This document shows, in pieces, positions 1,188-62,991 of a DNA stretch of 64,000 nucleotides. The DNA is taken from assembly GCA_963514005.1 (NCBI GenBank), contig OY740811.1:18600001-18664000 (forward strand), in the 5' to 3' direction. The translations under genes and the position numbers were made by a program. Within the stretch, counting starts at the first letter, position 1, and the number at the start of each line of letters is the position of its first letter. The notes beneath the pieces were generated by a model. That model was not told where the DNA came from. It ran no database searches and saw nothing but the letters and a program-made list of their open reading frames with translations. Source of the stretch: Raja brachyura. Its lineage: Eukaryota.

Positions 1188-1931
1188 CAGGAGGTTCGGT
1201 AACTTGACCTGAAAGGAGAAACAAACAATTCAGTTAATTATCATTTGAAACATGTTGAGCTCAAATGATTGGCGGCAAATATCTGCCCCATCTGTGCAAA
1301 AGTCTGCGCACCACACGTTGAGCTCATCAATCACAACAGAAGTCATAGACCCTGAGAAGAGTTAGCCACCCTCCATCTAAATGTGAAAGAAGGAAGAGTG
1401 TTTAAAGTGGGGACGATTTTACTATTGGAACGTCTGAAAACAGAGGGACAGGGAGAAGGTGGCTAAGCAAAAGGTGAGTGTTATTACAGCCAGTTTTATA
1501 AGCTCCACTCGTAATTCAGTAGCTAATAATCACAAATGTTTTTTACAATTGTCTCATACTCACAAAAGGAATCGGGGCAGGTGAATCGTATTCTGTAATC
1601 TTGACATGCCCGATCAGGTTGGTTGCTGTTCATACAAAAGAATCCAGTAGAAACGTTGCAACTGTTGAGTAGAATGTAGGGAGGTGTGAAACCACTGATG
1701 CACTTTGAATGAAATAACAGAAGTGCTATAATATGGCTGGCTCTATTTTGTACCTGGCAATGTTCTCTCCAGTCTGTGAGGCTGGAATCCCTGACGTTGT
1801 CTCCACCTCACAGGCAATTGGATCCGTGCAGATCTGACCAGGATTCTCATTTCGCAGATGGGGGAAGACTTCATAATCTCCAAATCCTGATGGGTTATCA
1901 CGGTCAAACCACGCAGTTTTGCAATCCCCTA
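1188..1931 (-). CDS. CysD module 1: exons A 1754-1931, B 1564-1661, C 1188-1208
   Basis: GT-AG exons; translation VGDCKTAW...ENIA/SCNVS...NSNQPDRAC...SF/CQVTEPP. Confidence 0.88.
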
Positions 1932-61900: not shown

Positions 61901-62991
61901 AGGGAAGTGCTTAGAAAGGGCTAGGTCACCACTACTAAAGGTGTACACACATATCATCTACAGTTCTTGGTTGTCCAAAATATTCCAAATGGAATTTAAA
62001 CTGGAGGTGGCGGAGGGTGGAGAGGTGAGCAAAAAAGGATTCTTGGAGAAGAAGCGCTAACTTAAATTTAGTTGCGTCTGGTTGAGTAACTATGGTAGGC
62101 TGAAGACTATTCCATGCTTTAATTGTGCAGGGGAAAAATGAATTTCTGTACACATCTGTCTTGGTAGCCGGTATCTCAAATAGGGTCGAATGTCCTTGTC
62201 TGCTCCAGATAGATTTGGGTTTGGTGTCGGTTTGATAATCTCTGTCGAGTTGACCATTTTGTAAAAACAAGTCAAACTGTGAGCTTTACGTCTGTCTTGG
62301 ACAGGGTTCCACCCCAGTGAATTCAGAAGTTTAGTAACACTCGCTTCTCTCTCATAGGTATTCGTAACAAATCGAACTACCTGTCTTTGGACACGTTCGA
62401 TGCAAGAAAGGGACTGTCAATAAGGAGGAGTGTTTAAGGTGGGGTTGAAGTTACTATTGGAAAGTCTGGAAATCAGCAAACAACGGACAAGGAAGAGGGT
62501 GGCTAAGGAAAAGGTGAGTATTTATTACAGCCTGTGTTATAATCAGCTCCACTCATAATTCAGTAGCTAGTATTCACAAATGATTTTTTACAATTGTCTC
62601 ATACTCACAAAAGGAATCGGGGCAGGTGAATCGTATTCTGTAATCTTGACATGTGCTATCAGGTTGGTTGCTGTTCATACAAAAGAATCCAGTAGAAACG
62701 TTGCAACTGTTGAGTAGAATGTAGGGAGGTGTGATAAAGTAGTTGATAAAACTACTGATGCTCTTTGAATGAAATAATAGAAGTGCAATAATATAGTCGG
62801 CTATATTTTGTACCTGGCAAAGTTCTCTCCAGTCTGAGATGCCGGAATTCCTGACGTTGTCTCCACCTCACAGGCGATTGGATCCGTGCAGATCTGACCG
62901 GGGTTCTCATTTCGCAGATGGGGGAAGGTTTCATAATCTCCAAATCCTGATGGGTTATCACGGTCAAACCACACAGTTTTGCAATTCCCTA
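1188..62991 (-). CDS. Internal part of a giant multi-exon gene encoding at least 22 tandem WxxW/CysD (mucin/CILP-type) domains; 66 exons in the window, gene open at both window ends
   Basis: Recurrent exon trio with polypyrimidine-AG acceptors and GTAC/GTGAGT/GTAAGT donors. Phases join in frame: G|TA=Val, AG|T=Ser, T|GT=Cys. The motif [18 protein letters not shown]...IC..P...E......PA..TG......C....GF.C.N..Q....C.DY.IRF.CP matches the Mucin2_WxxW/CysD family by recognition; no database search was run. Confidence 0.9.
2283..2310 (-). ncRNA. Minimal type I hammerhead ribozyme motif
   Basis: Minus strand reads CUGAAGA-A-GGGUC(UC)GACCC-GAAACGUC: conserved core, perfect 5-bp stem II, palindromic ACGU stem III, weak stem I. 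Confidence 0.65.
2601..2628 (-). ncRNA. Hammerhead motif, second repeat (GAAACAUC variant)
   Basis: CUGAAGAAGGGUCUCGACCCGAAACAUC; the same variant occurs at 13002-13029. Confidence 0.55.
4229..4993 (-). CDS. CysD module 2: exons A 4816-4993, B 4611-4708, C 4229-4249
   Basis: As module 1; acceptor reads CAGCAG so the first residue is Ala. Confidence 0.88.
5048..5790. mobile_element. Inverted pair of decayed Penelope-like 3' fragments (GIY-YIG C-terminus, UTR, decayed hammerhead); present in the long intron of most units (example shown)
   Basis: Minus arm ~5048-5452 translates [36 protein letters not shown]; plus arm ~5479-5790 translates [29 protein letters not shown]. Both arms end in a ctgaagaagggtctcgacccgaaacgtc-like remnant. 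Confidence 0.7.
6441..7197 (-). CDS. CysD module 3: exons A 7020-7197, B 6823-6920, C 6441-6461
   Basis: Intact exons, NSIQPDRAC variant. Confidence 0.88.
9012..9768 (-). CDS. CysD module 4: exons A 9591-9768, B 9394-9491, C 9012-9032
   Basis: Copy of module 3 at +2571 bp. Confidence 0.88.
11583..12332 (-). CDS. CysD module 5: exons A 12155-12332, B 11965-12062, C 11583-11603
   Basis: Intact; module 1-like, with the 92-nt A/B intron. Confidence 0.88.
12621..13097 (-). mobile_element. Second copy of the 477-bp hammerhead-bearing insertion, co-duplicated with its unit
   Basis: Same insertion site and structure as 2220-2696. Confidence 0.75.
14262..15018 (-). CDS. CysD module 6: exons A 14841-15018, B 14644-14741, C 14262-14282
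   Basis: Intact, NSIQ variant. Confidence 0.88.
16834..17607 (-). CDS. CysD module 7: exons A 17430-17607, B 17225-17322, C 16834-16854
   Basis: Variant [24 protein letters not shown] / [10 protein letters not shown], visible in track ORFs 17291..17692 and 17190..17420. Confidence 0.88.
18242..18998 (-). CDS. CysD module 8: exons A 18821-18998, B 18624-18721, C 18242-18262
   Basis: Intact, NSIQ variant; synonymous CCT>CCC change in the micro-exon. Confidence 0.88.
20816..21572 (-). CDS. CysD module 9: exons A 21395-21572, B 21198-21295, C 20816-20836
   Basis: Like module 8. Confidence 0.88.
23389..24163 (-). CDS. CysD module 10: exons A 23986-24163, B 23781-23878, C 23389-23409
   Basis: Module 7-type (KTPW, QRDLSC). 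Confidence 0.88.
24798..25571 (-). CDS. CysD module 11: exons A 25394-25571, B 25189-25286, C 24798-24818
   Basis: Module 7-type. Confidence 0.88.
25677..26957 (+). mobile_element. 5'-truncated young CR1-clade LINE (HER1-like), antisense to the host gene
   Basis: Open 392-aa RT frame at 25694-26872 ([25 protein letters not shown]). The 3' UTR GGCCTGTTTCCGTGCTGTAA is followed by a (GTTATATG)-like tail. TSD GGTAAG at 25671-25676 and 26958-26963; an empty site is seen at ~29541-29560. Confidence 0.95.
25694..26872 (+). CDS. CR1 ORF2 reverse transcriptase, C-terminal fragment (no endonuclease domain)
   Basis: ORF track translation shows the non-LTR RT motifs; 5'-truncated, so non-autonomous. 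Confidence 0.85.
   Translation: MINLLEFFEEVTREIDEGKAVDVVYVDFSKAFDKVPHGRLVKKVQSLGVNGGVARWIQQWLNGRCQRVMVDGCLSGWKPVTSGVPQGSVLGPLLFVMYINDLDDGVENWISKYADDTKIGGAVDNEVDFQSLPRDLGHLEEWAERWQMVFNADKCEVLHLGRTNQNRTYMVNGRELRNAVEQRDLGITVHSSLKVESHADRVVKKAFSMLAFINQSIEYRSREVMLKLYKALVRPILEYGVQFWSPNYRKDVNKIERVQRRFTRMLPGFQQLSYRERLNKLGLYSLECRRVRGDLIEVFKMMKGIDRVDVDKLFPLRVGKIQTRGHDMRIKGQKFRGNMRGNFFSQRVVAVWNDLPAEVVEAGSILTFQSKVDRYMDGKGMEGYGLSAGRWD
28675..29448 (-). CDS. CysD module 12: exons A 29271-29448, B 29066-29163, C 28675-28695
   Basis: Module 7-type but with KTAW. Confidence 0.88.
30906..32291 (-). CDS. CysD module 13: exons A 32114-32291, B 31909-32006, C 30906-30926
   Basis: KTAW..EVFPNL..ENIT / PDSTC / CEVTEPP. 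Confidence 0.88.
31057..31264 (-). mobile_element. 208-bp solo LTR nested in the LINE tail
   Basis: Termini (c/t)gta...taca, 5-bp TSD GTTCT at 31052-31056 and 31265-31269, AATAAA near the minus-strand 3' end. Confidence 0.7.
33504..33665 (+). mobile_element. Old CR1 ORF2 fragment, repeated in most long introns (example shown)
   Basis: Translation [24 protein letters not shown] resembles the CR1 motif EDWRxAxVTPLFKKG..PGNYRPVSL. Confidence 0.65.
33728..33970 (-). mobile_element. Decayed CR1/HER1-type 3' end (example shown; shortened in left-block units)
   Basis: taagaattaggagcaggag...ggccatt is the reverse complement of the usual elasmobranch CR1/HE1 3' tail (recognised by eye). Confidence 0.5.
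34449..35840 (-). CDS. CysD module 14: exons A 35663-35840, B 35458-35555, C 34449-34469
   Basis: KTVW..ENIT / PDGSC. Confidence 0.88.
34494..34703 (-). mobile_element. ~210-bp LINE 3' end (Rex1/Babar-like) just upstream of the micro-exon acceptor in units 14-16 and 18-21 (example shown)
   Basis: Minus strand ends ...TGACAATAAACTCA(CTTGAA)3; candidate TSD AATTCA; absent from units 1-13, 17 and 22. Confidence 0.6.
35895..36700. mobile_element. Inverted Penelope-like fragment pair, right-block example with a more complete plus arm
   Basis: Same two arms; the plus arm continues through agagatgctgagtagctccagcattttgtgtct...ccagcatctgcag. Confidence 0.65.
38013..39408 (-). CDS. CysD module 15: exons A 39231-39408, B 39026-39123, C 38013-38033
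   Basis: KTVW; exon B reads [14 protein letters not shown]. Confidence 0.88.
41580..42968 (-). CDS. CysD module 16: exons A 42791-42968, B 42586-42683, C 41580-41600
   Basis: KTPW..EVFPDL..ENFA / PDRAC. Confidence 0.88.
44386..45838 (-). CDS. CysD module 17: exons A 45661-45838, B 45456-45553, C 44386-44406
   Basis: Module 13-type; linker CEVTKPP. Confidence 0.88.
44477..44578 (+). mobile_element. RTE-like LINE 3' remnant with a C2H2 zinc finger, in the B/C intron of the units (example shown)
   Basis: [23 protein letters not shown] resembles the RTE/BovB ORF C-terminal CPxCxRxxxSxIGLxSHxRTH. Confidence 0.55.
44586..45253 (-). mobile_element. 5'-truncated CR1/L2-group LINE 3' fragment in the B/C intron of all right-block units 13-22 (longest copy shown)
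   Basis: Translation ...CFYKMLNG...[19 protein letters not shown]..., a (AAGAACC)n tail and candidate TSD AAAGG. Absent from units 1-12. Other copies at ~31040-31706, 34862-35262, 38424-38822, 41991-42390, 48409-48809, 51972-52370, 55554-55952, 59137-59535 and 61737-62406. Confidence 0.75.
44604..44811 (-). mobile_element. Solo LTR, copy 2
   Basis: Same element and GTTCT TSD. Confidence 0.7.
47996..49387 (-). CDS. CysD module 18: exons A 49210-49387, B 49005-49102, C 47996-48016
   Basis: Module 14-type at +13547 bp. Confidence 0.88.
51560..52955 (-). CDS. CysD module 19: exons A 52778-52955, B 52573-52670, C 51560-51580
   Basis: KTVW, ICMDP variant. Confidence 0.88.
55142..56537 (-). CDS. 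CysD module 20: exons A 56360-56537, B 56155-56252, C 55142-55162
   Basis: Copy of module 19 at +3582 bp. Confidence 0.88.
58724..60120 (-). CDS. CysD module 21: exons A 59943-60120, B 59738-59835, C 58724-58744
   Basis: KTPW..EVFPDL..ENVA / PDGSC. Confidence 0.88.
61537..62991 (-). CDS. CysD module 22: exons A 62814-62991, B 62609-62706, C 61537-61557
   Basis: KTVW..ETFPHL..ENFA / PDSTC. Confidence 0.88.
61755..61962 (-). mobile_element. Solo LTR, copy 3
   Basis: Same element and GTTCT TSD. Confidence 0.7.

Follow-up and report, generated by a model that had tools for sequence, protein, structure and literature searches.

A 49-domain CysD-only 'Mucin-5AC' gene in the skate Raja brachyura, probably encoding a secreted scaffold of the lateral-line cupula gel

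The window analysed here, a stretch of 64,000 nucleotides (nt) of contig OY740811.1 from the skate Raja brachyura, holds modules 16-37 (1188..62991, minus strand) of a 49-module gene that occupies about 18,561,800-18,736,830 of the contig on the same strand. This gene is real, intact and spliced, its splicing being seen in RNA-like contigs of relatives. Taken as a whole, it is probably a skate member of the CysD-only 'Mucin-5AC' family of fish, whose product of 4,794 residues and 49 CysD domains would be a predicted secreted, non-covalent and multivalent scaffold of the lateral-line cupula gel. The family (si:dkey-205h13.2), found in cartilaginous and bony fishes with 2-27 domains, and one of its functions have already been published (Ma et al. 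2025, PMC11765562). Like the R. brachyura gene, its members consist of a signal peptide and tandem CysD domains, with no VWD domain, no proline-threonine-serine-rich (PTS) region and no cystine knot (CK), and one of them, a skate protein, shares the linker repeats as well; the novel architecture claimed in an earlier note, made from the sequence of the window alone, therefore fails. Three things are new here: the highest domain count found (49, against 2-27), a complete and continuous model of a gene that RefSeq splits into pieces in two skates, Amblyraja and Leucoraja, and the origin of the linker exon, which is a copy of the micro-exon following the signal region, subsequently expanded and homogenised.

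A six-frame motif scan and exon extraction located in the window 22 exons A (178 nt), 22 exons B (98 nt) and 22 exons C (21 nt), running from 62991 to 1188 on the minus strand in strict ABC order. Each of them is flanked by an AG acceptor and a GT donor. All modules are of phase 1-1, and the exons splice into 6,534 nt without any stop and with a period of 99 residues, as the earlier note had described. That note had counted at least 22 domains; the array extends on both sides and comprises, in 264 kb around the window, 49 A, 49 B and 40 C exons, with 15 modules upstream of the window, 22 inside and 12 downstream. None of these 138 exons has a non-canonical splice site. A motif match resembling a B exon at 74901 proved false and is not counted among them. 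Modules 1-39 all end with an exon C, module 10 being followed by one further in-frame copy, and modules 40-49 are joined directly, without exon C and with a period of 91 residues. Along the 49 domains, 39 spacings of 99 residues are thus followed by nine of 91 and then by the stop, the linkers contributing 8 residues to the repeat period. The earlier note gave the linkers as (Q/E)VTEPP; one of them (module 21) is EVTKPP, with K instead of E. The extra linker micro-exon after module 10 (OY740811.1:18,682,376-18,682,396, i.e. 82396 on the window scale) stems from a partial duplication and its inclusion is in-frame; a doubled linker is also seen, four times, in the Amblyraja gene model.

Both ends of the gene lie outside the window, on the minus strand. 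Upstream of modules 1-15 (132686-65168 on the window scale), at 3-4 kb from the array, three micro-exons with canonical sites (136827-136810, 136053-136020 and 135923-135903) encode an N-terminus that is hydrophobic, its 9-residue hydropathy peaking at 3.1, and that hardly differs from that of Amblyraja XP_032903689.1. On the basis of this hydropathy and of this match, they encode a predicted signal peptide, in line with the secretion proposed earlier. Scans for signal exons using Pristis and shark N-termini as queries gave no match and the Amblyraja query succeeded, because the signal peptide is split over three micro-exons. The spliced frame leads from the signal peptide directly into domain 1 and continues for 4,794 residues up to the first stop, which sits inside the last B exon, just past the last cysteine-proline of domain 49. 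Modules 38-49 begin 734 bases and end about 38,170 bases ahead of window position 1. The last B exon (L005:1828-1925) retains a splice donor 10 nt past the stop codon, so that the 3' untranslated region (UTR) is probably located in a further exon; a candidate 3' UTR exon with AATAAA is found near L005:200-410.

The part of the protein corresponding to the array has a mass of 525 kDa (unglycosylated) and an isoelectric point (pI) of 4.2. Of its 48 intervals, 46 contain 8 cysteines, and none of the first 40 lacks an N-glycosylation sequon. Across all 49 modules, 35 of 86 positions are invariant, including the six core cysteines and an acidic segment after the single Trp, which we take to bind calcium. 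In a profile search, exon A matches Pfam PF13330 (Mucin2_WxxW, E 1.4e-9), and PF13330 is the only Pfam domain found in the Amblyraja orthologue. Despite the label CysD/WxxW previously given to these domains, the motif W-x-x-W itself is absent (0 occurrences) from the 49-domain array. The fold was predicted for a two-domain Leucoraja relative (P0011); the model (mean predicted local distance difference test score, pLDDT, 79.4; predicted template modelling score, pTM, 0.49) fits well-defined domains of unfixed relative orientation. Each of its 8 best PDB matches is a chain of MUC5B, MUC2 or MUC5AC, aligned at its CysD (best E 2.4e-5, root-mean-square deviation, rmsd, 1.8). These predictions support the view that the skate-type domains share the CysD fold, as implied by the beads-on-a-string protein proposed in the earlier note.

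This shared fold, together with the 'mucin-5AC' labels that databases give to some homologues, could suggest that the array represents the middle of a MUC2/MUC5-type gel-forming mucin, whose VWD, PTS and CK exons would have been missed. Such an identity is contradicted by the data and appears highly improbable. Indeed, no VWD, CK or PTS region was found within the frame that is closed from the signal peptide to the stop after domain 49, a frame whose limits are the same in orthologues, and the extension of the flanks recommended earlier to find VWD or CTCK domains revealed neither. A scan of the window introns for phase-keeping PTS-rich exons gave only 13 candidates of chance size (the longest 21 aa), consistent with the lack of PTS spacers already noted, and one RNA-like contig shows exon B, about 21 nt and then exon A. 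Although they share the CysD fold (rmsd 1.8 to MUC5B CysD) and the acidic D-x-x-x-G-x-G-D-x-E segment with MUC2, MUC5AC and MUC5B, the skate domains thus differ from the architecture of gel-forming mucins (Lang 2016, PMC4948705, accessible part) by the absence of VWD-C8-TIL, PTS, CK and WxxW, and they carry 8 cysteines per repeat versus 10 in MUC2 CysD2. Furthermore, each skate domain is split over two exons, whereas the mucin-cluster CysDs of the same genome are intronless and located on a different contig, C19.

Two other systems deserve comparison. CILP has one WxxW domain among other domains. CILP1 and CILP2 share the PF13330 domain with the skate protein, which, unlike them, consists of 49 such domains and nothing else. 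Oikosin1, a house protein of the tunicate Oikopleura dioica named CYS-only protein, has a comparable organisation: as far as the accessible parts of the sources tell, it contains only consecutive CysD domains (13 in tandem) and is a structural part of a secreted gel (Ambort 2011, PMC3195396; Gouyer 2015, PMC4431476). It differs by the conservation of WxxW in 11 repeats, this comparison being made from descriptions only, and it is an older precedent that removes the novelty of the architecture.

The intactness of the array needs to be interpreted with care. Since the module copies are young, a lack of stops says little by itself, a stop-free window array having a probability of 0.18 under neutrality. 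Other data are more informative. The 297 exonic nt show no indel, about 10 being expected, whereas the flanking intron has 35 alignment gaps over 1,007 nt, a count possibly inflated by insertions; this agrees with the contrast between exons and introns reported in the earlier note. The ratio of non-synonymous to synonymous substitution rates (dN/dS) is 0.46 among window modules and 0.30 among terminal modules. Synonymous changes are enriched, with 14 of the 37 distinct changes in window modules (p 0.026) and 28 of 66 over modules 2-39 (p 0.0003). The array is therefore under purifying selection.

Splicing was examined in four of 14 runs presumed to be RNA, none of which is recorded as such; these four, from four organisms, probably related species, and four studies, were aligned as contigs to a 10-kb stretch extending from module 37 to exon A of module 41. 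Among the matches listed, two of these four runs (X1 and X5) leave out the 92-nt A-B intron of module 37, the gap having CT..AC ends and 1754 being joined to 1661; X5 also leaves out an A-B intron of 107 nt. Likewise among the matches listed, one X1 contig carries 17 letters of exon C beyond an exon A acceptor and another 12 letters of exon A beyond an exon C donor. In one X6 contig, exon B is separated from the following exon A by 20 unplaced letters, as would suit a 21-nt exon with nothing else in between. Related species thus show joins of the types A-B, C-A and B-(about 21 nt)-A, in keeping with the A-B-C-A junctions that the earlier note had proposed to look for, although none is assignable to one particular module copy. 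The exon A acceptors of modules 2-40 are tandem NAGNAG sites (e.g. 1931), either AG being in-frame with a difference of one residue; the X1 contig uses the first AG.

A large array of this kind could be real DNA without encoding one chain, if skipping of modules yielded a series of shorter isoforms and if individuals differed in copy number; the domain count would then reflect the instability of tandem DNA more than selection for length. The phase 1-1 of every module makes in-frame skipping possible, catshark RefSeq isoforms vary by up to one domain (1865, 1838 and 1774 aa), relatives have between 6 and 27 domains, neighbouring units organised in higher-order repeats are up to 99.9% identical and, as said above, RNA-like joins do not point to particular copies. 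However, all 138 exons of the array keep canonical sites and frame, synonymous changes are enriched in the central modules and a simple assembly duplication is made less likely by the differences present between any two whole units. We consider this explanation improbable.

Amblyraja radiata XP_032903886.1, the 27-domain protein of Table 1 in PMC11765562, has 17 linker-bearing spacings (99 or 106) followed by 9 of 91. Identity is 90-97% between its last ten domains and modules 40-49, and 90-94% between its central repeats and the modules of the window. XP_032903886.1 and XP_032903689.1 thus resemble the R. brachyura gene in their linker repeats, ten terminal domains, stop position and occasional doubled linker. 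Homologues made of a signal peptide and CysD domains only occur in sharks (7-22 domains), rays and skates, two of them being named si:dkey-205h13.2 by NCBI; Mustelus has 21 domains, Scyliorhinus 20, Stegostoma 18 and Heptranchias 7. Linkers occur in batoids (Pristis, Narcine, Mobula and skates), those related to the skate linker being longer in Pristis and Mobula. Further homologues are found in teleosts, sturgeon, coelacanth and salamanders, and in squamates with long spacers. Zebrafish-type proteins have 6 domains connected by 3-4 residues, without any linker of the skate kind; identity between the skate array and a Danio domain is about 50%, and the first Trp of WxxW is also lost in si:dkey-205h13.2 of Danio aesculapii and carp (0 of 6 domains each). 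No CysD-only protein with more than 27 domains was found among the 267 proteins compared (cluster representatives of at most 5,000 residues), and a literature search, whose coverage excluded subscription journals and most supplements, retrieved no paper on the skate form, its exon structure or a 49-domain form.

These relationships were examined in a quick maximum-likelihood (ML) tree of 148 domains and 89 columns, many forks of which are open; duplicates, matches shorter than 65 residues and some domains of Scyliorhinus, Amblyraja, the VWD mucin, Patella, Clavelina and Cynoglossus were left out. Among modules 1 and 40-49, 10 of 11 are sister to their positional Amblyraja counterpart (approximate likelihood-ratio support, SH-aLRT, 84-99), and modules 2-39 form one shallow clade (95) with the Amblyraja central repeats. 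All chondrichthyan domains group together (92) and are nested with a bony-vertebrate family including cyprinid si:dkey-205h13.2 (91), the whole being apart from CILP-like and VWD-mucin domains. Genome-wide searches of R. brachyura, in which locus counts are lower bounds, found no second locus of the CysD-only type; they found intronless CysDs clustered on contig C19 and single domains on C32, C36 and C18. The domains of C32 and C36, which are presumably CILP-like, group apart from the skate array. The region of C19 between 30.66 and 33.27 Mb contains about 50 intronless CysD exons, including arrays with periods of about 1.1 kb and 6.5 kb, and is probably a gel-forming mucin cluster, itself strongly expanded. 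The single CysD of C18 (44,680,048-44,680,311) lies inside an open frame of 5,481 codons. Another dense CysD expansion is P0057, a VWD-type mucin of 5,421 aa with about 30 CysD domains at a spacing of 117-128 residues.

The organisation of the gene also indicates how the array grew. Exon C and the last N-terminal micro-exon (135923-135903) are both 21 nt long and phase 1-1. Comparison of this micro-exon with C exons and 60 nt of flank gave scores of 46-59 in the six C exons tested out of 40, versus shuffle maxima of 25-28; when set against 42 other AG-21-GT windows of the region, it ranks first (52), the next one scoring 25. This homology implies that what expanded was a [micro-exon, A, B] unit originating at the start of the gene. 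Identity between central units reaches 99.9% without ever being complete; these units form local subfamilies and higher-order repeats, module 2 being nearest to module 38. The pattern is as expected for an array shaped by unequal crossing-over in its middle, with conserved ends: unequal crossing-over would have multiplied and homogenised the unit in modules 2-39, while domains 1 and 40-49 would have kept one-to-one orthology with those of other skates. The data support an expansion of the CysD array specific to skates, in agreement with the lineage-expanded protein envisaged in the earlier note.

At the protein level, each domain may fold as a disulfide-held, calcium-binding CysD sandwich. The CysD domain is a beta-sandwich with two calcium ions and adhesive contacts (Javitt 2020, PMC7599080), and MUC2 CysD2 forms non-covalent dimers (PMC3195396), according to the accessible parts of these papers. 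The chain would probably hold the components of a gel together by numerous weak contacts of its CysD domains, and its acidity (pI 4.2), with about one N-glycan site per central repeat, may help to retain water. Covalent polymers of the mucin type are improbable, because VWD and CK are lacking and because nearly every repeat has 8 cysteines, and the chain probably does not form them, judging from its sequence.

The cupula is the best-supported site for such a scaffold because of zebrafish expression and mutant data. It is the tested site in the published family and was absent from the candidate sites of the earlier note. Zebrafish si:dkey-205h13.2 / muc5AC is expressed only in neuromast support cells, and morphants and mutants display shorter cupulae and a slower startle response (PMC11765562). 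By analogy with this relative, a role in the skate cupula is likely. Several points nevertheless weigh against this assignment. The mutant effect on the cupula is modest (47.4 vs 38.2 um), the functional work concerns zebrafish only and the protein was not visible in the cupula there (PMC11765562). The RNA-like runs carry no tissue label, so that expression in the skate cupula rests on the zebrafish analogy, and each RNA-like contig spans no more than one module. Orthology with the zebrafish gene relies on sequence, on the quick 89-column tree and on NCBI names. Finally, close homologues exist in lizards and snakes, P0027 (Podarcis), P0241 (Python), P0255 (Pantherophis) and P0253 (Euleptes), which group with the fish family in the tree; those of Podarcis and Python have long Pro/Thr-rich spacers between 4-5 CysD domains. 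Lizards and snakes have no lateral line, and the family is therefore not tied to cupulae.

The main competing reading is that this gene, of the same family, acts in skates chiefly in a different gel, either skin mucus or the jelly of the ampullae of Lorenzini; a long gel-filled canal would then be what the linker and the expansion of batoids serve. We regard this as unlikely, although it has arguments in its favour. Ampullary organs and neuromasts share a placodal origin and much gene expression, and the protein part of the ampullary gel, for which a mucin scaffold has been proposed, gives it its viscosity, the protein scaffold itself being unsettled (accessible parts of the sources, including Phillips 2021, PMC8379299). 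Moreover, linkers appear in batoids, exon depth is high in one run (X1), and squamate homologues show that the CysD-only family is able to move to other tissues. However, such functional data as exist all indicate neuromast support cells, and chain length does not follow batoid anatomy in any obvious way, three of the sharks compared having 18-22 domains without linker and two having 6-7. Two lateral-line supplements are uninformative, their labels being taken from other proteins: the gene was not found by name in the accessible part of that of the sturgeon transcriptome (PMC7720607), nor among the best 2 of 3 'mucin' rows of that of paddlefish (PMC5429088).

Within the window, each module on the minus strand extends from the first letter of its exon A to the last letter of its exon C. 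The exons A, B and C are 62991-62814, 62706-62609 and 61557-61537 in module 16; 60120-59943, 59835-59738 and 58744-58724 in module 17; 56537-56360, 56252-56155 and 55162-55142 in module 18; 52955-52778, 52670-52573 and 51580-51560 in module 19; 49387-49210, 49102-49005 and 48016-47996 in module 20; 45838-45661, 45553-45456 and 44406-44386 in module 21; 42968-42791, 42683-42586 and 41600-41580 in module 22; 39408-39231, 39123-39026 and 38033-38013 in module 23; 35840-35663, 35555-35458 and 34469-34449 in module 24; 32291-32114, 32006-31909 and 30926-30906 in module 25; and 29448-29271, 29163-29066 and 28695-28675 in module 26. They are 25571-25394, 25286-25189 and 24818-24798 in module 27; 24163-23986, 23878-23781 and 23409-23389 in module 28; 21572-21395, 21295-21198 and 20836-20816 in module 29; 18998-18821, 18721-18624 and 18262-18242 in module 30; 17607-17430, 17322-17225 and 16854-16834 in module 31; 15018-14841, 14741-14644 and 14282-14262 in module 32; 12332-12155, 12062-11965 and 11603-11583 in module 33; 9768-9591, 9491-9394 and 9032-9012 in module 34; 7197-7020, 6920-6823 and 6461-6441 in module 35; 4993-4816, 4708-4611 and 4249-4229 in module 36; and 1931-1754, 1661-1564 and 1208-1188 in module 37.

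The introns carry transposable elements, as the earlier note had indicated: a reverse-transcriptase frame (25676..26869, plus strand; PF00078, E 3.8e-23), belonging to an insertion resembling a long interspersed nuclear element (LINE) and located outside the protein, lies between modules 26 and 27. Several long frames are found in the intron between modules 9 and 10 (OY740811.1:18,689,993-18,694,730); we assume that they resemble a tyrosine-recombinase (DIRS-like) retrotransposon. As regards the neighbourhood, an exon of a BTB-domain (kelch-like) gene (L034:4899-5831) lies 72 kb upstream of the array gene on the opposite strand. A gecko kelch fusion model is 26% identical to this BTB gene and has better matches elsewhere in the genome. 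The best C1qA match is on the same contig, about 1.2 Mb from the array, and a catshark gene model fuses C1qA with the CysD gene.

A bolder and doubtful proposal is that a cupula protein was rebuilt in batoids by micro-exon copying, giving a half-megadalton CysD chain that would be the protein scaffold long looked for in the gel of the ampullae of Lorenzini, as well as that of canal cupulae. The growth of the spacer, with 8 extra residues in R. brachyura, doubled in places, and 25 Thr-rich residues in Mobula, would then mean that a PTS-like spacer was seeded from scratch and that a mucin-like architecture has been caught arising independently. More generally, the complete gene model corrects the split models of databases, and the 49-domain model supplies exact peptides and probes for skate cupulae or electrosensory gel. 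A 12-domain CysD construct strengthened mouse gut mucus (PMC4431476, accessible part); the skate protein, a natural poly-CysD four times longer, is a template for CysD biophysics. The gene also shows how a linker can arise from a micro-exon of the signal region and spread by concerted evolution.

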